Positions 1,797-58,299 of a stretch of DNA of 64,000 bases are shown in pieces. A program made the translations under genes and the position numbers. The DNA comes from an uncultured Thermoleophilia bacterium (GTDB lineage: Bacteria > Actinomycetota > Thermoleophilia > UBA2241), in contig CAVPXA010000002.1 of NCBI GenBank assembly GCA_963709635.1, positions 6,858 through 70,857 of the forward strand. Direction: 5' to 3'. The first letter of the stretch is position 1. Each line of letters starts with the position of its first letter. The notes under the pieces are model-generated. The model did not search any database, was not told where the DNA came from, and was given only the letters and a program-made list of their open reading frames with translations.

Positions 1797-3331
1797 TCGC
1801 CTCCCTTCTCGTCGTCCTCTATCTTGCCGCCGACCCAGCCCCCGCCGCCCTCAGGACGGATGGAGCCGCCGGCCGGCTTGTTGAAGTCGGGCATGGCGTC
1901 GTCGGTCTGGACGCCCGGCGTGAAGATGCCGCCGCCTCCGCCGACGCCCGCGCCGCCCACGACGGCCACGGCCGGCTCACCGCGGGCGGTGAAGCGGTTC
2001 TCCGAGTTGCTGTCTTCGCGCTTGCGCAGCTTGGGATCGAGCACCTCTTCGTAGGCCGTGCCGATGAAGGTGAACGCGAGCACCACGAGGATGACCGCGA
2101 TACCCGGCGGCAGCAGGTACCACCAGGCCGGCAGGCCGGCGGCGCCGTTGACCCACGCGTAGTACAGCATGGTGCCCCAGCTGAAGTTGAGCGGGTCGCC
2201 GAGGCCGAGGAACGACAAGGTCGTCTCGGAGAGGATGGCGATGGCCACCACCAGCACGAGGTTGGCGAAGATGAGCGGCATCACGTTGGGCAGGATGTGC
2301 CTTCTCATCACGTGGCCCGTGCTGGAGCCGATCGCCCTGGCGCGCTCGATGAACTGCAGCTCGCGCACGCGCAGCGTGTCGGAGCGCACCATGCGGGCGG
2401 TGCCCGGCCAGCTGGTGATGCCGATGATGAGCACGATCATCCAGTAGTTCTGGCCCCAGGCGGCGGCCAGCACCATCGCCAGTGGTAACCACGGGATGAC
2501 CAGGAACGCGTCCGTGAGCCGCATCAGGCTCTCCGACTTCCACCCGGCAGTGTACCCGGCCGTGATGCCGATGCCGGCGCCGAGGATGGTGGCCATGAAC
2601 GCGGCGAGCAGACCGACCATGAGCGAGATGCGCGCGCTCCAGATGAACTGCGCGAGCACGCTCTGACCCACCTGGTCGGTGCCGAACCAGTTGTAGTAGT
2701 AGGCGGTCGGCGGGTGATACGGGCCGAAGAACTCGCCCGTCGCCGGGTCCTTGATCTGCGCGTTGGGGTCGAGCAGGGCGTGGTCGGCGAGGAACGGGGC
2801 GAACAGCGCCATGCCGATGAACACGACGAGGATGGCGAGACCCACCATGCCCTGCCAGTTGGCGCGGTAGAGCTTCCACACCTGGTGCGTGTTCCAGGTG
2901 AGCAGCTCGACCCGCTCCGGGTTGGCGACGGCCCAGACCCAGACGCACGCGGCGGCGAGCACCACGATGACCGTCTGGAGAGCCCAGTTGTACGCGAAGT
3001 CGTTGGCGCCGGCGGACCAGTCGCCGAAGCCGCCGCCGGCCAGCAAGGCCCACACGAGGAACAAGAGGCCCTCGACCAGCAGCAGGATGTTGAACACCCT
3101 GGCCTTGGTCCTGCGGGCCAGGTAGAGGACGCCGAACGCGAGGCACACGACGCCCAGCAGCACCATGATCCACGCGGGGTACGCGCCCACGGCGGGCGAG
3201 AAGAAGCCCTTGATCACCTCGGCGAGGCCGCTGGAGATGGGGACGTCCTTCGGATACGTGAGCAGCTCCAGGACGCACCAGACGATGATGGTCCAGAAGA
3301 TGACCCAGTTCCGGAACCGCCGGGGGATCAT
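1793..3331 (-). CDS. ABC transporter permease (OppC/DppC-like) with an extra N-terminal membrane domain and a Gly-rich tail
   Basis: 512-aa ORF. The C-terminal two thirds is a binding-protein-dependent permease core (ISLMVGLLAAFMATILGAGIGITAGY...ERARAIGSSTGHVMRRHILPNV). The first ~150 aa add predicted TM helices. The tail GGAGVGGGGGIF...GGGGWVGG is low complexity. ATGA overlaps on both sides. Confidence 0.88.
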
Positions 3332-4323
3332 GCCTGCACCCGCGGGTCGAGGTAGTAGTACATGATGTCGGCGATGAGGTTGGCGATGATGACGGCGATG
3401 CTGGCGATGAGGAACACCGCCTGCATCACCGGGTAGTCGCGCTTCTGCATCGACTCATAGGAGAGCAACCCCAGCCCCGGCCAGTTGAACACGCTCTCGG
3501 CGAGGATGGCGCCGGACATGACGAAGCCGAGGTTCATCATCACGACGGTGACCGTGGGCAGCATCGCGTTGGGCACCACGTGCTTCCAGAGGACGGAGTT
3601 CTCGCTGAGGCCCTTGGCGCGGGCGGTGAGCGCGTAGTCCTCCGTCATGACGCCGGTGATGGAACTGCGCATGATGAGGTGGTACTCGCCGACGTAGGCG
3701 ATGGCGAAGGTGAACGCCGGCAGGAACAGGTGCCTCGCCAGCGACTGGAAGGCGGCGAAGCCGCTGAGCTCCACGCCGGGCTCCTCCATGCGCCCCGTGG
3801 GGAACCAGCGGAGCTTGGTGGCGAAGAGCATGATCATCAGGAGGCCGAACCAGAAGGTCGGCATGGCGTACAGGACCATCCCTAAGTTCGTGGTCACGAC
3901 ATCGTAGGTGCCGTTGCGTCTCCACCCCGCGAACACCCCCGTGATCATGCCGATGACGGTGGCGCCGATGGTGCCCACACCCACGAGCAGGACGGTGGGC
4001 CAGATGCGCTCGGCGACCACCTCCGTGACGGGGCGCTTCTCGGAGAACGACATGCCGAACTCGCCCTGCACGGTGTCGCGCCAGTAGAAGATGAACTGCT
4101 GCCACATCGGCTTGTCGAGGTTGAACGTCTTGCGCTGCTTCTCGATGACCGACGGGTCGGTCTTGCCCTTGGGGAGAAGGAGCCGGGCCGGGTCGCCCGG
4201 GAGGATGCGGAAGAGAGCGAAGTTGAACGAGGCCACGAGGATGATCGTGAGCAACGCGTTCAGCAGCTTTCGGATGAAGTACCTGTCGTTTGTCCACTGC
4301 ACTGCGGGTCCCACGCCCGTCAC
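3328..4323 (-). CDS. ABC transporter permease (OppB/DppB-like)
   Basis: 331-aa ORF with N-terminal FIRKLLNALLTIILV and an EAA-type loop TARAKGLSENSVLWKHVVPNAMLP. Multiple hydrophobic spans. Confidence 0.92.
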   Translation of the reverse strand: MTGVGPAVQWTNDRYFIRKLLNALLTIILVASFNFALFRILPGDPARLLLPKGKTDPSVIEKQRKTFNLDKPMWQQFIFYWRDTVQGEFGMSFSEKRPVTEVVAERIWPTVLLVGVGTIGATVIGMITGVFAGWRRNGTYDVVTTNLGMVLYAMPTFWFGLLMIMLFATKLRWFPTGRMEEPGVELSGFAAFQSLARHLFLPAFTFAIAYVGEYHLIMRSSITGVMTEDYALTARAKGLSENSVLWKHVVPNAMLPTVTVVMMNLGFVMSGAILAESVFNWPGLGLLSYESMQKRDYPVMQAVFLIASIAVIIANLIADIMYYYLDPRVQA

Positions 4324-6852: not shown

Positions 6853-6919
6853 GCTGGTACTGTACCCACCGCGGGGCGGCTGCTACAGACCCCATGCGTA
6901 GCCGGGACTGGCCACACCC

Positions 6920-44835: not shown

Positions 44836-45270
44836 TTACTCCTTGATCTCGAGCACTTCGGGGTTCTGCGCCTCGTGGGGATGCTCCGTGCCGGCGTAGA
44901 TCTTGAGCTTGCGGAGCTGGGCGCGCCCGAGCTTGTTGTGAGGCAGCATGCCGCGCACGGCGTGGCGGATGATCTCCTCGGGGCGGCGAGCCTGGAGCTT
45001 GGCGTACGACTCGCTCTTGATGCCGCCGGGGTAGCCCGAGTGATGGTAGTACATCTTCTGCTCGGGCTTCTTGCCGGTCACGACGATCTGCTCGGCATTG
45101 ACGATGACGACGAAGTCGCCGGTGTCGATGTTCGGCGTGTAGATTGCCTTGCGCTTGCCGCGCAGGCAGTCTGCGACGACGGTCGAGAGACGGCCCAGGG
45201 TATGGCCCTTGGCGTCCACGACGTACCACTTCTTCTCGATGGTGGAAGGCTTGGCGACGTAAGTCTTCAT
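44836..45270 (-). CDS. rplM: 50S ribosomal protein L13
   Basis: ORF 44836..45516 trimmed to [20 protein letters not shown]...[10 protein letters not shown]...[10 protein letters not shown] (144 aa). Confidence 0.97.
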
Positions 45271-45325
45271 GCGCTCACTCGTTCGGTAGCAGGAACGCAC
45301 GCCCGGCTCGGGCGCGCGAAGGGGG

Positions 45326-45354
45326 ACTATAGCGAATCTGAGCGGGCGGCGCAA
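45326..45354 (-). promoter_or_regulatory. Candidate sigma-A promoter of rplM-rpsI
   Basis: The minus strand has TTGCGC (45354-45349), a 17-nt spacer and TATAGT (45331-45326), ~55 nt upstream of the rplM ATG. Confidence 0.5.
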
Positions 45355-45397
45355 CACGAGGCGCCGTGGACGCCGCCCGCCGCCTCGCGCGCCCTGC

Positions 45398-45691
45398 TCA
45401 GCCGACCGGCGTGGCGCCGGCCTGCTCGTGGAACGACAGCGCGCCGACCGCGCAGCCGATCCCTCCGACCACAGAGCGGAGGGTCTCGTCCTCGAGCGCC
45501 GCCGCGCCTGCTTCACCGGCGGCGGCGTGCAGGTCCTCGTCGCTCACCGCGAAGCCCTCGGCCGCCGCGAGCTCACAGAGCGCGCGCGGACGGGCGGCCT
45601 CCTCGAGGCCGCTCAGCGCGCGGGCCTTCTCCTGCAGCTCCTCGTCGGTCTCCAGCCGGGCGAAGAACGCCTTCAGGTCCTCTGCCGACAT
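45398..45691 (-). CDS. Nif11-type leader RiPP precursor peptide (copy 2)
   Basis: ORF 45398..45808 trimmed to the ATG after GAGAGGAG. Leader: [77 protein letters not shown]. Core: [20 protein letters not shown]. Confidence 0.8.
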
Positions 45692-45719
45692 GCCGCTCCT
45701 CTCGTCCGGCGGCGTCCGC

Positions 45720-46022
45720 TCACCCGCGTGCGGTCGCGTCGCCCTTGGGATTCCCCGCCAGGAAGCCGGGCTCCACACACGAGACGCCGCCCGCGGCCGC
45801 GACCCCACGCAGCGTCTCGTCGTCGAGCGCGGCCGCTGCCGGGCCGTCGGCGGCCGCAGCCAGATCGTCGGCGGTCACCGAGAGGCCGAGCTCCGCCGCC
45901 AGCGCGCACAGCGCGGCGTCGCGAGCGTCCCCCGGCTCGCCGCTCAGCGCCCGCGCCCTCTGCTGCAACTCCGCGTCGGCCTCCAGCCTCGCGAAGAAGG
46001 TCCTCAGGTCCTCTGCCGACAT
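45720..46022 (-). CDS. Nif11-type leader RiPP precursor peptide (copy 1)
   Basis: 100-aa ORF after a GGAGGAG RBS. Leader: MSAEDLRTFFARLEADAELQQRARALSGEPGDARDAALCALAAELGLSVTADDLAAAADGPAAAALDDETLRGVAAAGG. Core: VSCVEPGFLAGNPKGDATARG. It starts 21 nt downstream of the rSAM gene stop. Confidence 0.8.
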   Translation of the reverse strand: MSAEDLRTFFARLEADAELQQRARALSGEPGDARDAALCALAAELGLSVTADDLAAAADGPAAAALDDETLRGVAAAGGVSCVEPGFLAGNPKGDATARG

Positions 46023-46043
46023 CGCTCCTCCCGTCTGTCGCCG

Positions 46044-47441
46044 TCAGCCGCGGCCGGCGATCGCCGCCAGCCGCCGCCGGTAGGGACTCCTGTACAGCTC
46101 GCACGCGGCCGGGTCACGCCCCAGCAGGTCGCCCGTCGCGGCGTAGGCGAGCGCCCAGCACCCCGCGCCGCACTCGCCGAACTCGGCGCACGCCGCGCAC
46201 TCCGGATTGTGCTCCAGGATCCGCGCCTTGGTCACCGTTACGGCCGCACGCAGGGAGTCGTCGTCCCATGCCTCGGAGAGTTCCGTGGCGAGCAGCGACG
46301 GCATCGCGTCCTGGAGCGGCGTGTCGATGAACCGCGGGCAGAGGATGAGCCGTCCGTCCGGCATCACGTAGACGGTCTCCTGGAGCAGCGCCCCGCAGTG
46401 GAGGTCCTCAGGCGAGCAGCGGTGGACGGGGCCGACCGGCGGCACGAACCCGCCCGGCGCCCCGGAGTACATGCCGCACAACGTGATCAGGTACGGGCGT
46501 CCGAGATCGAGCCAGCGGCGCAGGATCGCCGCCGCGGCCTCAGCCTGCGCATCGAGAGACAACGCGGTCGGCGCGCCGACCCAGCAGCCCACGGGGATCG
46601 GCGCGCTCACGTGCCATCCCGTCACGCCGAGCTCGGCCATCAGACCGGTCGCGGCGACGATGCCGTCCCGGGTCTCGGCGTCGAGACTGCTCGTCACGCT
46701 CACGCGGAAGCCGGCGGCCACGGCCCGGCGCGCCGCTTCCAGCGCCGAGCCTTCGGCGCCGGCACGGCCGCGCATGCCGTCGTGGGCGCCGACGCCGTCG
46801 TAGCTCAGGTGGATGACGGGGTCGGCGCCCAGCTCCCGCAGACGAACCAGCGCGTCGTCGTCCAGCAGCAGGCCGTTGGTGGAGATCTGGTGCACGCCGA
46901 TGCGCCGCTCGATCAGCCTGCCGATGAGCTCCCAGATGTCGGCGCGCAGCAGCGGCTCGCCGCCGGTGAGGTGGACGCGCTGCACGCCGGCGCGCTCGAG
47001 CTGGTCAACGATGCGCAGCATGTCCGCGGTCGGAAGCTCGCCGTACCGCGCCTCCGGGGCCTCCATGTAACAGTGCCGGCAGGCGAGGTTGCAGCGCCCG
47101 GTGACCGCCCAGTTGGCGAACGCCAGATAGCGGTTGGCGGCCTGCCGGTGTCGCTGCCGCGGGTCGAGCTGCGTCCCCCGCGGGCACTCCAGGGCCATGC
47201 CCTTCTCGATCATGAGGTCGAGCGTCGCGCGGTGCGCGGGGAGGAAGAACGGCGAGGTGAAGTCGGTCGCGCCGTCGCAGCTTCGCGCGACCCAGGCGGC
47301 CGCCGGCGTGAGCGCCGGGTCCTCGCCCGTACGCCAGTTGACGAGGACCGCCGGACGGTCGCTGTAGCCGCGGAGGTGCCAGTCGGGCGCGAGCACCGCG
47401 TAGCGGCCGCTCGCGCCTTCGCTCGGGGACATCGGCGTCAC
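46044..47441 (-). CDS. Radical SAM/SPASM-domain peptide maturase with an N-terminal RRE-like region
   Basis: CX3CX2C at GRCNLACRHCY. SPASM signature: CGALLQETVYVMPDGRLILC (CX13GX4C) and CAACAEFGECGAGC (CX2CX5CX3C). N-terminal PqqD-like stretch: YAVLAPDWHLRGY...LTPAAAWVARSCDGATDF. Start is GTG 47441 (after GAGGAG) or ATG 47432. Confidence 0.9.
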   Translation of the reverse strand: MTPMSPSEGASGRYAVLAPDWHLRGYSDRPAVLVNWRTGEDPALTPAAAWVARSCDGATDFTSPFFLPAHRATLDLMIEKGMALECPRGTQLDPRQRHRQAANRYLAFANWAVTGRCNLACRHCYMEAPEARYGELPTADMLRIVDQLERAGVQRVHLTGGEPLLRADIWELIGRLIERRIGVHQISTNGLLLDDDALVRLRELGADPVIHLSYDGVGAHDGMRGRAGAEGSALEAARRAVAAGFRVSVTSSLDAETRDGIVAATGLMAELGVTGWHVSAPIPVGCWVGAPTALSLDAQAEAAAAILRRWLDLGRPYLITLCGMYSGAPGGFVPPVGPVHRCSPEDLHCGALLQETVYVMPDGRLILCPRFIDTPLQDAMPSLLATELSEAWDDDSLRAAVTVTKARILEHNPECAACAEFGECGAGCWALAYAATGDLLGRDPAACELYRSPYRRRLAAIAGRG

Positions 47442-47496
47442 GCACTCTCCTCGGTCGGCGGGGCCTCCCACCGCCGGGCGGCTCCGGCGCCCGGCG

Positions 47497-48303
47497 TCAG
47501 TCGAGACGCCGTATCCTGATCTCGTCGCCGGCGTCGAGCCCCAGCACCTCGGCCGCCGACCCGTTGTTGACCGCCACCGACGCCTGGCCGTAGCTGTCGA
47601 TGAGCACGACGATGTCGCTGCGGCGCACAGACTGGAAGGTGCGCGCCACGCTCGCGAGGTAGCGCTCGTCGCCGGTGAGGAGCTCGACGTGGCCGGTGAG
47701 CCCGGCCTTCTCCAGGTCGCGGGCGCGGATGTTGAGCGCGACGTTGCCGAACCGGTCGACGAGCACCGCGACCGCCGTCAGGCCGTCGCGGTGCCGGCGG
47801 GGCTCCGGGTAGTCGATACGGTCGAGGTGGTCGGCGTCCAGCTCGGCTCCGACCGCGTCCAGCGAGAGGCCGGCCGCCAGACGGGCCGCGGCCGGCGCGA
47901 ATACGTCGCGGCCGTGGAAGGTGGCGGAGAGCGGCATGAGCCACAGCTCCTGGTTGCTGAGCTCGTAGGCGGCGGCGACCCCGCCGTCGAGGTCGGCGGC
48001 GTGCATGAGCAGCCCGTTGTCCGGGCCGACGAAGAGCCGATCGCCGTGGCTGCGCAGGGCGATCGGCCGCCGCGGCCCGCCCACGCCCGGGTCGACGACC
48101 GCCAGGATCACCGCCCGGACCGGCATGTAGGGCAGCGTGTTGCGCAGCACCACCGCCCCGGCGAGCACGTCGCGCTCCGGCAGCCCGTGCGTGACGTCGA
48201 TGACCCGGACGTCCGGCGCCAGCCGGGCGATGACCGCACGGCACACGCCGGCGAAGTCGTCGGTGTAGCCGTAGTCGCTGAAGAAGCAGATGGGCCTGTC
48301 CAT
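47497..48303 (-). CDS. DUF62 family SAM hydrolase (SAM hydroxide adenosyltransferase / halogenase-like)
   Basis: ORF 47497..48717 trimmed to MDRPICFFSDYGYTDDFAGVC. Conserved blocks: IDVTHG, VVDPGVG, GPDNG, ATFHGRDVFAPAAARLA. Confidence 0.88.
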   Translation of the reverse strand: MDRPICFFSDYGYTDDFAGVCRAVIARLAPDVRVIDVTHGLPERDVLAGAVVLRNTLPYMPVRAVILAVVDPGVGGPRRPIALRSHGDRLFVGPDNGLLMHAADLDGGVAAAYELSNQELWLMPLSATFHGRDVFAPAAARLAAGLSLDAVGAELDADHLDRIDYPEPRRHRDGLTAVAVLVDRFGNVALNIRARDLEKAGLTGHVELLTGDERYLASVARTFQSVRRSDIVVLIDSYGQASVAVNNGSAAEVLGLDAGDEIRIRRLD

Positions 48304-48590
48304 GGCCCCGAACCTACGACGAAGCCACGCCGCGCGCAACAGTTTCGGGGGCACTCCCGGAGCCGATGCCGGCCTGCGCTCCGGATACACTTGCCTCCGA
48401 TGCCCCTGGGGACGACCTCGCGGCGCGGCTCGAGCGCCCGACAGAGCGTCGGCGACGCCGTGCACCCCACACGCGAGAACGCGGGGCGGATCATCAAGCG
48501 CGCCGTGGAGCTCGCGCCCGAGTGCTTCGAGTGATCGCGGGCGCCGCGCGCCGCTGACCCGGCCCGGGAGGATTCCGCCCGGCAGCCCGG

Positions 48591-49430: not shown

Positions 49431-50399
49431 GGCGTGCGGATCTCGTCCAGGATGCCGCCGGCCCCGCGCTCGAGCAGCTCGGCGGCGAGGAGCACGCCGA
49501 GGCCCTCGGGGTCGCCGGCGGGCCGCGCCTGCGCGCCGCGCACCGAGCGCGCGCCGTCGAGCGAGCCCACGTAGGCGGCGAGCGCCAGCGTGCCGGCGGC
49601 GCTCTCGCCGGCCTCCCAGAGAGCGTGCGCGGCGATCGGCACCTGGCAGCCACCCTCCAGCGTGCCCAGGAGCGCCCGCTCCGCCTTGACGCAGAGCGCC
49701 GTCTGCGGGTGGTCGAGCGCCGCCCTGATCTCGAGCAGCCGCGGGTGGTCGGCGCGCGCCTCGATGGCGAGCGCGCCCTGGCCCACGGCCGGCAGCATCT
49801 CGTCGAACGCGAAGGCGAACCCGACAACCTCGGAGCGGCCGAGGCGCGAGAGCCCCGCGGCCGCGAGGATCGTCCCCGTCATCTCCTCCTCGACGAGCTT
49901 GCGCAGGCGCGTCTCGACGTTGCCGCGGATGTCGACCACGTCGAGGTCCGGGCGCAGCGCCAGGAGCTGCGAGCGCCGGCGCAGGCTCGAGCGTGCCCAC
50001 GCGGGCGCCGTGTGGCACATCGTCCAGAGTGAGCGGCCCGTCGACGGACGCGCGGCCCTCGAGCAGCGCCGGGTTGGGCACGAACACGTCGCGCACGTCC
50101 TCGCGCTCGGTGAAGGCGATGATGTCCAGCCCCTCGGGCACGGCGGTGGGCATGTCCTTGGCGGAGTGCACGGCCACGTCGATGCGGTCCTCGAGCAGTG
50201 CGCTCTCGAGCTCCTTGGTGAAGAGTCCCTTGTCGCCGATCATGGCCAGCGGCGCGTCGAGGATCCTGTCGCCCTTGGTGCTGATGACCTCTATCTCCAC
50301 GCGCAGGCCCGGGTGGCGCTCCGCCACGCGGTCGCGCACCCACTCCGCCTGCACGAGCGCGAGGCGGGAGCCGCGGGAGCCGATCCGGATCAGGTCCAT
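49427..50399 (-). CDS. hemC: Hydroxymethylbilane synthase (frameshifted as sequenced)
   Basis: MDLIRIGSRGSRLALVQAEWV...ISTKGD...FTKELE...HSAKDMP...GARVGT (frame of ORF 48591..50843) continues as SSLRRRSQLLALRPDLDVVDIRGNVETRL...PAVGQGALAIE (ORF 49427..50020). The break is near 49991-49994. Length is 3n+1. Confidence 0.9.
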
Positions 50400-51844
50400 C
50401 AAGCGTCCTCCGTTCCGGTGCCGCGCAGGTGGTGGACGGTGCCGCCGGCGGAGGGCGCGGGCGGCTCCTCGGCCTCCTGGGGCTGGGTGGTGGTCGAGGA
50501 CGGCGCCGGCTGCGCCGGCGCCTCGCCGGGCGCCGCCTCGCCGGGCGCCGCCTCGCCGGACGGGGCCTCGCCCGCTTCCCCCGTCTCGAGGTCGAAGAGC
50601 GTACGCACGGCGTCCACGTACAGGTAGCACTGGTCGCGCCCCGCGACCTCCTTCATCTTCACGGTCGGCACGTGCAGGATCTTGTTGACGATGCTCGTGG
50701 TGAGCATGTCCACCCGCGCCCGCTGCTCCTCGGTGAGGTCGCTGAGGCGGTTGCCCAGGCGGTCGAGCTCGCTGCGGCGGATGTCCTCCACTGCCTCCCG
50801 CAGCATGGCGATGGTCGGCACCACCTCGAGGCTGCGCAGCCATTCGTTCATGCCCCCGAGCTCCTGCTCGACGATGCGCTCGGCGTGCGCCGCGTCCTTC
50901 TCGCGCTCGTGGCGGTTGTGCTCCACCACGTGCTGGAGGTCGTCGATGTCGTAGAGGTAGGCGTCGCGCACACGGTTGATCTCCGGGTCGAGGTCACGCG
51001 GCACGGCGATGTCGATGAGGAACATGGGGCGGTGCTTGCGGCGCTTGAAGGCGCGCTCCACCGTCTCCCGGGTGATCACGTAGTGCGGTGCGGAGGTCGA
51101 GCTGATGACGATGTCGGCGCGGGAGAGGTGCTGCTCGAGGTCCTCGAAGCGCACCGCCTCGCCGCCGACGCGCTGCGCGAGCTCCAGCGAGGTGTCGAGC
51201 GTGCGGTTGGCCACCAGGATCTTCTCGATGCCGTGAGCCTTGAGGTGCGTCGCCGTGAGCTCGCTGGTCTCGCCGGCGCCGACGATGAGCACGGTGTGGT
51301 CGCGCAGCTTGCCGAACACCTGCAGGGCGAGCTCGACGGCGGCCGAGCTGACGCTCACGGGCCGCTCGCCGATGGTGGTCTCGGTGCGCACGCGCTTGCC
51401 CACTTCGAGCGCGTGCCGGAACAGCCGGTTGAAGACCACGGCCGTGCAGCCGCCGTCACAGGCCATCTGGTAGGCGGCCTTGAGCTGGGCGACGATCTGC
51501 GCCTCGCCGACGACCATGCTGTCGAGGCTCGAGGTGACGCGGAAGAGATGCGAGATGGCGCCGTCGCCGGAGTAGCTGTAGAGCGACGGCTCGAGCTCTC
51601 CCGGCTCGACGCCGGCGTGCCGCGCCAGGTGCTGCAGCGCCGCCTGGCGCGCCGCGAGCGAGTCGCGCCCGTACAGGTACAGCTCGGTGCGGTTGCAGGT
51701 GCTGAGCGCGACGACCTCGCAGGCCACGCCCTCCTCCAGGAGTTCCTGGCTCAGACGCAGCGCGGCCTCCTCGTCCAGGGCAAGGCGCTCGCGCAGCTCC
51801 AGCGAGGCGGTCTTGTGGGAGATGCCGGCGACGACGACGTGCAT
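50399..51844 (-). CDS. hemA: Glutamyl-tRNA reductase with a Pro/Ala/Glu-rich C-terminal tail
   Basis: 481 aa with VVAGISHKTASLELRE, LSTCNRTELY and GAGETSEL. The tail is GEAGEAPSGEAAPGEAAPGEAPAQPAP.... Confidence 0.95.
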   Translation of the reverse strand: MHVVVAGISHKTASLELRERLALDEEAALRLSQELLEEGVACEVVALSTCNRTELYLYGRDSLAARQAALQHLARHAGVEPGELEPSLYSYSGDGAISHLFRVTSSLDSMVVGEAQIVAQLKAAYQMACDGGCTAVVFNRLFRHALEVGKRVRTETTIGERPVSVSSAAVELALQVFGKLRDHTVLIVGAGETSELTATHLKAHGIEKILVANRTLDTSLELAQRVGGEAVRFEDLEQHLSRADIVISSTSAPHYVITRETVERAFKRRKHRPMFLIDIAVPRDLDPEINRVRDAYLYDIDDLQHVVEHNRHEREKDAAHAERIVEQELGGMNEWLRSLEVVPTIAMLREAVEDIRRSELDRLGNRLSDLTEEQRARVDMLTTSIVNKILHVPTVKMKEVAGRDQCYLYVDAVRTLFDLETGEAGEAPSGEAAPGEAAPGEAPAQPAPSSTTTQPQEAEEPPAPSAGGTVHHLRGTGTEDA

Positions 51845-57052: not shown

Positions 57053-57466
57053 TCACTGAACGGCTGCGGGGGAGGCCGACCCCTTGTACTTGCTCGGGCA
57101 CTTGGTCTGGAGCTGGTCGGCGGTGATCAGCGCGCCGGTGCCGGCGTACTTGCCGATAACGACGACGTCCACCCCCGCCTCGAAGGTGTTGGGCATCTGC
57201 CCGCTGTAGAGCACGTTGACCGTGCCCTGCTTGCCGGTGAGGTCCTGGATGGCGAAGTGCACGCCGGTGGCGTCACGCTCGATGGTGCCGTCCAGGACCC
57301 TGCCGCCGACCTTGACGTTCTTGCCGTCGTACTGCCCGGTGGTGAGTTCCGAGACCTGACGGTAGTACGCGCCCTGCCGCTGGACGAGGACCACGACGCC
57401 GACGATGAAGACGACGACGATGACGCCGGTAGCGACGAGCAGACGAGTGCGGGATTTCTTGTTCAA
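57053..57466 (-). CDS. ccmE: Heme chaperone CcmE, CxxxY variant
   Basis: 137 aa (TTG start) with an N-terminal TM and an OB-fold region (KNVKVGGRVLDGTI...FEAGVDVVVIGK). The heme-binding position reads LQTKCPSKY, i.e. CxxxY instead of the canonical HxxxY. Confidence 0.9.
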   Translation of the reverse strand: MNKKSRTRLLVATGVIVVVFIVGVVVLVQRQGAYYRQVSELTTGQYDGKNVKVGGRVLDGTIERDATGVHFAIQDLTGKQGTVNVLYSGQMPNTFEAGVDVVVIGKYAGTGALITADQLQTKCPSKYKGSASPAAVQ

Positions 57467-57654
57467 GCGGATACCCCTGGTTGTATTGCCGGAGCTCGAC
57501 TAGTGTAGCCGACGAACGGCATTCTTGCCATTTCCACTACGTGAAGGTGAGTATGCCTCGCGCCCGGCCGCCGCGCGACCCGGAGTCGCGCTCGCGGCGG
57601 CCTCCCCGTCCTCTCACGGCAGGAGAACTCGTGCGCGGCGGCGTAGCTAGCACC

Positions 57655-58299
57655 ATGCCCATCGACAAACGTCGAGAGACGAAGGTCATCGCCGTCGTGG
57701 TCGCGGAAGTGATGGATGCCGGCGCCGGGGACCGCGAGAGAGTGCGGCGCACACTCGAGCGCGTCAACCAGCTCTTCCGGCCGGCGATCGCCGAGCCCTT
57801 CGGCCTCGCCGGCGACGACCGCGTCGACGGCGCCCTGGCCGACCCCGCCCAGACGCCTCTGTGCCTGAGCGTGCTGCGCGAACTGCTCGCCCCGCTGCAG
57901 TTGCGCGCCGGGGTCGGCGTCGGCGTCGTCGGCCATCTGCGCGAACCGGTCGGGACCGAGCGCGACGCCTACTCGGTCGCCCGTCGCGCCCTCCAGCTCG
58001 TGATCCGCGACAAGGGCCTCACCCGCTACCTCGGCACCGGCGACGCCGGCGACGTGCTGCTCGGCGCGCTCTGCCGGCTGGTGGATCCGCTCATCCGCGC
58101 GCGCACCGGCAAGCAGTGGGAGGCCATAGCGGCCTACCGCGAGCTCGGCCACCAGCGCGAGGTCGCCGAGCGTCTGGGCGTCACCCGCCAGAGCGTCGGC
58201 GACCGCCTGAGCGCCGGCAACCGGCGCGCGGTCGAGGAGGCCGACGCGGCTGTCGCCACCTACCTGAGCTACCAGCGCCGGCAGCTGTTCCGCGGCTGA
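57655..58299 (+). CDS. SatD-family putative DNA-binding regulator
   Basis: ORF 57481..58299 trimmed to [16 protein letters not shown]. The layout matches SatD: an N-terminal GDxxxG-like region ([10 protein letters not shown]), [16 protein letters not shown], then [33 protein letters not shown] (HTH). Confidence 0.55.

Follow-up and report, generated by a model that had tools for sequence, protein, structure and literature searches.

The 64,000-nt window analyzed here (positions 6,858 to 70,857 of contig CAVPXA010000002.1, from an uncultured Thermoleophilia bacterium) contains a minimal three-gene cassette, consisting of a radical S-adenosylmethionine (SAM) maturase gene and two genes for precursors of peptides made on the ribosome and modified after translation (RiPPs), that lies between SAM_HAT/hemD and rplM-rpsI in a housekeeping region. 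We consider it highly likely that the cassette specifies a radical-SAM-modified, Cys-dependent RiPP system. Our preferred reading, to which we give an even chance, is that a leader-bound radical-SAM enzyme makes one thioether per Cys, most likely within a C-x3-G unit of the core peptide. Whatever the bond, the feature is a real, uncharacterized variant among radical-SAM RiPPs.

Two Tandem Genes Encode Nif11-Type Precursors

Both small open reading frames (ORFs) of the cassette are genuine tandem Nif11-type RiPP precursor genes. Copy 1 (45720..46022, minus strand) encodes 100 aa and was recognized from the ORF, its Nif11 match, a third-codon-position G+C content (GC3) of 0.90 and the family logo, while copy 2 (45398..45691, minus strand) encodes 97 aa and was recognized from the ORF, its Nif11 match, its GC3 and an ortholog with 84% identity. 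The Pfam Nif11 profile (PF07862; cut-off 23.8 bits) matched copy 1 with 33.2 bits and copy 2 with 39.2 bits. With the TIGR03798 Nif11 leader profile, copy 2 scored 42.3 bits, above the cut-off of 32.3, and copy 1 scored 27.8, slightly under it. GC3 was 0.90-0.91 in both precursor frames, as in genuine neighboring genes, whereas the long ORFs that overlap them, either on the plus strand or in another frame, had values of only 0.62-0.77 and were rejected as artifacts of the 71% G+C DNA.

The residues after the double glycine were taken as the cores because the Nif11 profile match ends there, exactly so in copy 2 (residue 77); in copy 1 the TIGR03798 alignment ended at residue 76, three residues before GG. 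The leader of copy 1 (45786-46022, minus strand) terminates in AAAGG, with GG at residues 78-79, and is followed by the 21-aa core VSCVEPGFLAGNPKGDATARG and the stop codon (45720-45785, minus strand), which holds C-V-E-P-G with Gly at Cys+4. The leader of copy 2 (45461-45691, minus strand) terminates in VVGG, with GG ending at residue 77, and is followed by a 20-aa core and stop codon (45398-45460, minus strand) in which CAVG represents a C-x2-G variant and the C-terminus carries the clade motif TPVG. A first-pass annotation, made from the letters alone, had already called these two ORFs and their single-Cys cores after GG, and ORFs, sequence and Nif11 profile all confirmed the call.

Although ORF calling placed the start of copy 2 at a GTG (45808), comparison of the two copies identifies the ATG at 45691 as the true start, because its GAGGAG Shine-Dalgarno sequence and MSAEDL N-terminus match copy 1. 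The Shine-Dalgarno-like sequence of copy 1, GGGAGGAG (46025..46032, minus strand), lies 2 nt upstream of the ATG and is kept in both copies in the DNA alignment; that of copy 2, GAGAGGAG (45696..45703, minus strand), was found from the sequence and the same alignment 4 nt upstream of its ATG. Both proteins begin with MSAEDL(R/K)xFFARLE.

Copies 1 and 2 were 55% identical (BLASTP, E = 1e-24), with gapped identities of 49/79 (62%) in the leader and 6/21 (29%) in the core, values which bear out the earlier description of the pair as RiPP precursors with conserved leaders and divergent cores. The same annotation had counted 47 identities among the first 74 residues, which proved exact on recount, and had reported a 331-bp period, which corresponds to a head-to-tail, start-to-start spacing of 331 nt and a 215-nt direct repeat with 73% identity. 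All of the core features that it listed were present in both copies: a Cys at core position 3, a Phe at Cys+5 or Cys+7, an A-T pair and a terminal Gly. A leader Cys within LCxLAA was likewise present in both. Its description of the cores as almost unrelated was too strong, since they share a C-x(2-3)-G-hydrophobic signature in addition to the terminal Gly. Each core has one Cys and one or two Ser/Thr residues, with no conserved Ser/Thr-Cys pairing.

A Radical-SAM/SPASM Maturase Is Encoded Upstream

The stop codon of the maturase gene (46044..47471, minus strand) lies 21 nt before the start of copy 1 on the same strand. Read from the GTG at 47471, its product is 475 aa long, as against 465 aa for the database form P0001, whose start is at 47441. 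The three domains of the enzyme are an RRE-like domain (RiPP recognition element), a radical-SAM core and a SPASM domain with seven conserved Cys. The core matched Pfam Radical_SAM with 82.7 bits, and its CX3CX2C motif (C127/C131/C134; 47070..47093, minus strand), which binds the SAM-cleaving [4Fe-4S] cluster, was invariant in 30/30 family members. The SPASM domain (46101..46397, minus strand) was delimited from alignment column counts and a weak Pfam SPASM match, which by itself is sub-threshold (15 vs. 21.5). Its seven Cys, arranged as C359-x13-G-x4-C378, C425-x2-C428-x5-C434-x3-C438 and C457, fit the SPASM motif CX9-15GX4C ... CX2CX5CX3C ... C and were conserved in 29-30/30 sequences. An eighth SPASM Cys, C352, occurs in the window enzyme, and a Cys was found at that position in only 11/30 sequences.

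The N-terminal domain (residues 20-112; 47136..47414, minus strand) was assigned from a model with a mean predicted local distance difference test (pLDDT) score of 94 and from Foldseek matches. When modeled alone, its top Protein Data Bank (PDB) match was the lasso B1 protein 6jx3_B (E = 3e-3, TM 0.55-0.59), followed by the N-terminus of SuiB, TbiB1, TigE and TruD, so that all top matches were RREs; the nearest were RREs solved with a leader peptide bound. By its predicted fold the domain is thus RRE-like, and leader binding is putative. An AlphaFold2 (AF2) model of the full-length enzyme (pLDDT 90) was nearest to the solved structures of RiPP maturases, namely SkfB, SuiB, PqqE, CteB and TigE, with 19% identity to SkfB in the structural alignment. 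A phmmer search of the PDB returned generic radical-SAM-core matches only (SkfB, E = 6e-11 over residues 120-309) and no close homolog with a solved structure, and no NCBIfam equivalog cut-off was reached.

Cys and the C-x3-G Unit Are Conserved in the Cores

A total of 86 homologous precursors was collected, of which 83 were analyzed together with the two window copies to give a set of 85 with 54 unique single-Cys cores. Most homologs have GG or AG at the cut site, and AA, DG or GS occur in a few. A Cys stood 1-3 residues past the cut site in 85/85 precursors, and every more distant core also held Cys. The first-pass annotation had named conserved Cys or Phe positions among homologs as a test; Cys passed it and Phe failed, since the latter was found at Cys+5 in just 12/54 unique single-Cys cores. 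With His unconserved as well, the crosslink to a Phe or His carbon that it had offered as an alternative is unlikely to be the family reaction.

A Gly occurred at Cys+4 in 51/54 unique single-Cys cores and at +3 in the remaining three, which include copy 2; the C-x2-G form of copy 2 is shared with its orthologs P0162 (core ISCAVGVMSFYEQAGAGPVG) and P0193. At +3, the single-Cys cores had P, V, T, S, I or G, and those of the distant loci F, V, L, A, I or Y. The last residue was Gly in 48/54 of the unique single-Cys cores, Phe was found at -3 in 37/54 and Glu at -4 in 33/54, as part of a C-terminal (R/H)EFxG motif in the main clade; in the window clade the motif was TP(V/M)G or PLG.

Multi-Cys cores were found in two groups of relatives. 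In a sister clade (21 precursors), the cores contain 2-5 Cys within G-C-G-x-S-(V/L)-G repeats about 12 residues apart and mostly end in G-C-G. The earlier limit of one bridge per core holds for both window cores, whereas the cores of sister cassettes contain 3-5 Cys. The distant loci L094, L095 and L100 encode hydrophobic, Gly-rich multi-Cys cores in which 17/18 Cys have Gly at +4 (the unit is CFTFG in L100). For L094 and L095 the count was 16/17, with a binomial p = 7e-11 against the cores' own Gly frequency of 0.20. Some units at the distant loci stand at the very C-terminus (LCVILGT, CGGVG), and therefore only about five downstream residues are needed. Since Gly at +4 recurs in both the single-Cys and the distant cores, C-x3-G is the signature of the family. 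The leader Cys, by comparison, is lineage-specific: sister clades have H, Y, R, Q, T or S in its place, and the leaders of L094 and L100 lack it.

Tandem Arrays and the Age of the Window Pair

Relatives carry 2-6 tandem precursor genes. At L091, five precursors are spaced about 350 nt apart and are 91% identical in the leader and 42% in the core, and L094 has six precursor ORFs, one of them truncated; near-identical leaders with hypervariable cores in such arrays agree with the combinatorial family that had been proposed for the window. The accompanying proposal of tandem duplication followed by diversification fits the arrays in the family, but the window pair is not the product of a recent local event. 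Copy 1 shares 52-68% identity with many precursors of other genomes, and copy 2 shares 52-58%, save for its 84% ortholog P0162. The pair is thus old, the two copies being no closer to each other (55%) than to many foreign precursors.

Proposed Modification and Its Alternatives

In the proposed mechanism, the RRE domain would bind the Nif11 leader and the thiolate of the core Cys would coordinate the open iron site of auxiliary cluster I (Aux I). A 5'-deoxyadenosyl radical would take hydrogen from a nearby carbon, to which the Cys sulfur would then be joined as a thioether, with a single bridge for each Cys. Conservation is best matched by an acceptor within the C-x3-G unit, either the Gly C-alpha (Cys+4, or Cys+3 in copy 2) or the residue before it; the result would be a small, local, sactionine-type ring. 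The same i, i+4 spacing of Cys and partner occurs in Cys-X3-Asp of PapA. The leader would then be cut off after GG and the peptide exported, with the protease and transporter encoded elsewhere.

A Cys-centered radical-SAM modification is a sensible reading of the alignments because Cys is the sole invariant side chain of the core. That the bond is a thioether we rate slightly above an even chance; it is plausible because seven, not eight, SPASM Cys are conserved family-wide. A seven-Cys SPASM domain led to the proposal of an open Aux I site for AlbA, and CteB has an open Aux I site (PMC6231123); in PapB and Tte1186, the substrate Cys or Sec binds an auxiliary cluster (PMC10177961). That the ring is local is a more tentative proposal and falls somewhat short of an even chance. 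A local acceptor is favored because C-x3-G is the only feature common to all clades and because its units occur within five residues of the C-terminus. With Gly as the partner, only a C-alpha, sactionine-type bond would be possible. Local rings have precedents: PapB makes a thioether from each Cys to an Asp or Glu on its C-terminal side (PMC12373016), and streptosactin contains 4-residue sactionine rings (PMC9389541).

Several observations weigh against this proposal. Beyond the gene and domain assignments the chemistry is something we infer, and the RRE assignment itself depends on a Foldseek E-value of 3e-3 at best, obtained with a predicted model. Seven SPASM Cys are no proof of an open site, as a non-Cys ligand such as that in PqqE is possible, and the window enzyme has its eighth Cys, C352. 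Gly stands at +3, not +4, in copy 2 and its orthologs, and the actinobacterial multi-Cys cores are mostly C-G-x-S-V/L-G, with Gly at +5, while the last Cys of their G-C-G ends is without an x3-G partner. The conserved Gly could have a conformational role rather than serve as the acceptor. Motif screens and Pfam searches of neighboring ORFs found no leader protease or exporter within the 64-kb window. In addition, the spacing between Cys and C-terminus varies within narrow limits in the 54 unique single-Cys cores (15-21 residues, mode 18) and their C-terminal motif is conserved; a local ring alone accounts for neither, and both would fit a long hairpin bridge better.

Such a bridge would be a long-range, subtilosin-like hairpin sactionine that joins the N-terminal Cys to the C-terminal motif in one macrocycle of about 14-18 residues, the acceptor being Phe -3 or Glu -4 in the EFxG clade and Thr -4 or the terminal Gly in the window clade. 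The fixed Cys-to-end distance and the C-terminal conservation at -1, -3 and -4 are what it would predict, and A-T occurs four or five residues from the end in both window cores. In subtilosin A, Phe and Thr reportedly act as acceptors amid comparable Gly/Ala-rich sequence. PapB, moreover, can link a Cys inside a peptide to the residue at its C-terminus (PMC12373016). However, no one C-terminal residue is conserved over all clades, as C-x3-G alone is; Thr is missing in P0162, the close ortholog of copy 2, and Phe and Glu are missing at the respective positions in the window clade. The distant cores also spread their Cys units over the full length, even to five residues from the end, which is a misfit with nested hairpins. 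We therefore regard the hairpin as unlikely.

Quite unlikely, in our estimation, is a different radical reaction in which Cys only anchors the substrate on Aux I or serves a later step. Candidates are epimerization of the hydrophobic residues between Cys and Gly, a C-C crosslink, Val cyclopropanation in S-V-G repeats and conversion of Cys itself, e.g., to formylglycine. Enzymes that make no thioether are indeed among the structural neighbors, namely SuiB (C-C), PqqE, TigE (cyclopropylglycine), EpeE (epimerase) and anSME (formylglycine), yet the similarity to TigE, EpeE and anSME was below phmmer detection against the PDB. Hydrophobic or beta-branched residues predominate between Cys and Gly, but their identity at +1 to +3 is unconserved and there is no conserved aromatic residue. 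The long actinobacterial cores carry S-V/L-G repeats that recall the TVGG repeats of cyclopropylglycine precursors (TvgA). Against this, Cys and Gly alone are invariant and Gly offers only its C-alpha, and the known epimerases and C-C crosslinkers work without a substrate Cys.

An assignment of the enzyme to heme or primary metabolism (AhbD/NirJ-like), with the small ORFs as unrelated Nif11 proteins or unmodified double-glycine bacteriocins, is extremely improbable and effectively refuted by context: NirJ and AhbD were the best partial NCBIfam matches, some homologs bear heme-synthase names in JGI, and hemA, hemC and hemD lie 1-4 kb upstream of the maturase, but the scores (103.7 vs. 515 and 93.6 vs. 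500, respectively) reflect the generic radical-SAM core only, an RRE-like N-terminal domain is present, the enzyme is paired with Nif11 precursors at loci without heme genes (L082-L087, L094, L095, L100), and at L091-L093 each of two paralogs precedes its own precursor type.

A number of further candidates were considered and rejected. The leader Cys as crosslink partner is unconserved outside the window lineage. A triceptide cyclophane would require a conserved aromatic residue, of which there is none, and a cyclopropylglycine synthase is disfavored by the lack of a conserved Val at +3. The spliceotide motif is X-Tyr-Gly (PMC11002830); a PlpX-type splicease that works with PlpY on Nif11/NHLP-leader substrates was dismissed since neither window core has a Tyr, the RRE is fused to the enzyme and no PlpY-like gene adjoins the cassette. 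A prochlorosin-type lanthipeptide was discounted given a single Cys, the lack of conserved Ser/Thr pairing and the absence of a LanM-like gene among the 17 window ORFs scanned (32-62 kb). For a ranthipeptide, no Asp, Glu or Thr occurred at a fixed Cys offset across clades, the fixed partner being Gly +4. Membership in a known sactisynthase family was likewise set aside (StsB NF045574, 70 bits vs. a cut-off of 625).

It is possible, although we consider it doubtful, that C-x3-G defines the substrates of a new class of RiPPs and that the family, phylogenetically broad and previously unstudied, installs an undescribed bond type or topology. Examples would be a repeated Cys-to-Gly C-alpha thioether at i+4 or a non-thioether change templated by Cys-Fe coordination.

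Comparison with Known RiPP Systems

The system can be described as sacti-/ranthipeptide-like on a prochlorosin-like Nif11 precursor scaffold. Nif11-leader (N11P) precursors, including the prochlorosins, are covered by TIGR03798/PF07862 (Haft, Basu and Mitchell 2010, PMC2887384). As in the prochlorosins, a Nif11 leader of about 77 aa ends at a double-glycine cut, conserved leaders and hypervariable cores are served by one enzyme, and protease and exporter are not necessarily adjacent. The maturase, in contrast, is a radical-SAM/SPASM protein and not a ProcM-type lanthionine synthetase, the single Cys sits in C-x3-G with no Ser/Thr-Cys pairing, and the host is an uncultured actinomycete rather than a cyanobacterium.

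With the sactisynthases (streptosactin/GggB, QmpB, AlbA, SkfB and CteB-type enzymes) the maturase shares its RRE, radical-SAM and SPASM/Twitch architecture. Family-wide, seven rather than eight SPASM Cys are conserved, as in AlbA, and the core Cys would be the donor. Type 2 sactipeptides have small unnested rings, and 4-residue local rings and alternating donor and acceptor units have precedents (PMC9389541; PMC6231123). Unlike in these systems, no specific sequence kinship was detected, the leader is of the Nif11 type, and C-x3-G is no described sactipeptide motif. As in PapB (freyrasin) and CteB/Tte1186 (SCIFF), there would be repeated local units, each with one Cys putatively joined by a thioether to a residue on its C-terminal side (PMC12373016); PapB also accepts C-terminal carboxylate acceptors. 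The Gly at +4, however, lacks a side-chain carboxylate as well as any beta or gamma carbon, which makes a ranthionine impossible there, and the precursors are not SCIFF-like and no ranthipeptide/SCIFF maturase model was reached.

The families TIGR04103 (nif11-class peptide radical SAM maturase 3) and TIGR04340 (ACGX) similarly combine radical-SAM/SPASM enzymes with Nif11 or Cys-Gly repeat peptides and are likewise chemically uncharacterized; the ACGX-repeat peptides recall the G-C-G-x repeats of the sister cassette. With scores of 77 bits vs. 725 and 54 vs. 400, respectively, the window maturase belongs by profile comparison to a separate family. In sum of the profiles compared, it falls outside the curated sactisynthase, SCIFF/ranthipeptide, nif11-maturase-3, ACGX, splicease, AhbD/NirJ and cyclopropyl-synthase families, because the scores are far under the cut-offs and the defining substrate motifs are missing.

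New chemistry for crosslinking peptides comes in large part from radical-SAM RiPP maturases. The novelty here lies in a large maturase family without a curated model, whose substrates carry a simple, statistically strong Cys-x3-Gly motif, and in the prochlorosin-like pattern of one enzyme and many cores within a radical-SAM family. In the window, a single enzyme and two short substrates with one Cys each (C-x3-G and C-x2-G) make up a minimal system that is near ideal for working out the reaction. Should the enzyme tolerate cores as freely as the arrays suggest, it might provide a compact peptide-stapling tool; if the reaction is that of an ordinary sactionine, the result would be a new subfamily with a new recognition motif, useful but unsurprising.

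The Maturase Family and Related Loci

A word-indexed protein search returned about 54 full-length homolog clusters, followed by a sharp fall to generic SPASM proteins. An exhaustive profile hidden Markov model (HMM) search showed this estimate to be a large underestimate, with 2,921 representatives at E <= 1e-30. The best 150 representatives, each standing for one 50%-identity cluster, were nearly all full-length with E < 1e-99, and ten representatives spread down the list failed every NCBIfam cut-off. On the basis of these counts and failed cut-offs, the maturase family is large and uncurated, and searches of full-text literature turned up no description of it. The first-pass annotation had anticipated a small, previously uncharted scaffold; uncharted it is, but as part of a large family rather than as a small oddity. 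The few named homologs came from uncultured "Actinomycetes bacterium" metagenome-assembled genomes (MAGs) and, more distantly, from Sporomusaceae, Spirochaetales and Lachnospiraceae. A scan of genome contigs with the radical-SAM alignment keyed on the generic CRHC.. and TGGEP.L motifs and gave 80 unrelated SPASM enzymes, with L001 (30% identity, full length) as the only useful match, and a scan of metagenome contigs with the precursor alignment gave 3 loci only.

At every related locus with small ORFs read (more than 12 besides the window, namely L081-L088, L091-L095, L100 and L001), the family radical-SAM gene adjoined at least one Nif11/GG-leader precursor, while the other neighbors of the pair varied between loci. 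No precursor was seen at L098/L099, a cluster of multiple radical-SAM genes with YcaO, and some members of the wider family need not act on C-x3-G peptides.

The locus of the closest lineage is syntenic with that of the window but holds more genes, in the order hemA, hemC, hemD, small GG peptides, TetR, rSAM_A, one to five short-core precursors, SAM_HAT, rSAM_B, one long multi-Cys precursor, rplM and rpsI. Both cassettes (A and B) are present in L091-L093, and L081 has only cassette A with one precursor. The second, paralogous cassette, between SAM_HAT and rplM (L091:7525-9526, L093:7544-9497, L092:3942-5943), consists of a longer radical-SAM protein (517-533 aa) and a precursor of 124 aa whose S-L-G-rich core contains 4 Cys and ends in G-C-G. 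The window has one cassette, which occupies the position of cassette B yet encodes single-Cys cores, and its enzyme is about equidistant from the two paralogs (64-67% identity to A, 61-62% to B). In this actinomycete lineage the cassettes sit in a conserved hemACD/SAM_HAT/rplM-rpsI locus and appear to be inherited vertically, with precursor arrays that turn over; such a housekeeping location and vertical inheritance hint at a physiological or signaling role over that of a classical mobile bacteriocin.

Several other features were observed at the related loci. Upstream of TetR, syntenic relatives have one or two extra small ORFs (L091:2549-2707; L093:2948-3148 and 3280-3450; L081:4664-4975), of which the window has none. 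Their products lack Cys and have an acidic leader of the double-glycine type, e.g., MKPADAGDEKLGTDTLRGDELADDELEGVTGG|FLGPSEESVAKKDAPPQEII; they may belong to another peptide system, unrelated to the first, at this locus. The distant locus L082:3050-6374 contains two tandem radical-SAM paralogs, one broken by frameshifts, a Nif11 ORF with a frameshifted-looking core and a Peptidase_S8 gene, and may represent a degenerating version of the system that includes a candidate leader protease. At L098:693-7305, the family representative P0350 is clustered with three more radical-SAM genes and YcaO. JGI labels P0008, P0012, P0029 and P0069, a set that includes a more distant SPASM match, as 'Fe-coproporphyrin III synthase' or 'AdoMet-dependent heme synthase'; both labels are probably over-annotations that stem from generic radical-SAM similarity.

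Surroundings of the Cassette in the Window

Downstream of the cassette lie rplM and rpsI, then glmM, RidA, glmS and nnr; upstream are SAM_HAT (SAM hydroxide adenosyltransferase), hemD, hemC, hemA and cytochrome c maturation genes. Pfam searches of ten neighboring ORFs identified nine housekeeping genes (glmM, glmS, nnr, RidA, CBS, moaA and others) and one ORF without a match. The 64-kb motif screens and the Pfam searches of neighboring ORFs showed no C39-ABC exporter, third precursor or second modifying enzyme nearby, and an ABC/Walker motif screen of the window found only CcmA-type and short ABC ATPases. A promoter and terminator scan of 45100-48500 detected nothing, and an Rfam scan of 43-49 kb detected no family.

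The SAM_HAT gene (47497-48300, minus strand; PF01887/PF20257) adjoins the cassette, as it does in L081 and L091-L093, and is absent at the non-syntenic loci L082-L087, L094, L095 and L100. Its adjacency could reflect lineage synteny alone or a link to SAM turnover. Elsewhere in the window, a 288-aa ORF at 57433-58296 (plus strand) has a gene-like GC3 of 0.85 and is without a Pfam match at E <= 1e-5. The HemA (glutamyl-tRNA reductase) ORF at 50399-51844 (minus strand) ends in a low-complexity stretch in which Gly, Glu, Ala and Pro are abundant (GEAGEAPSGEAAPGEAAPGEAPAQP...).

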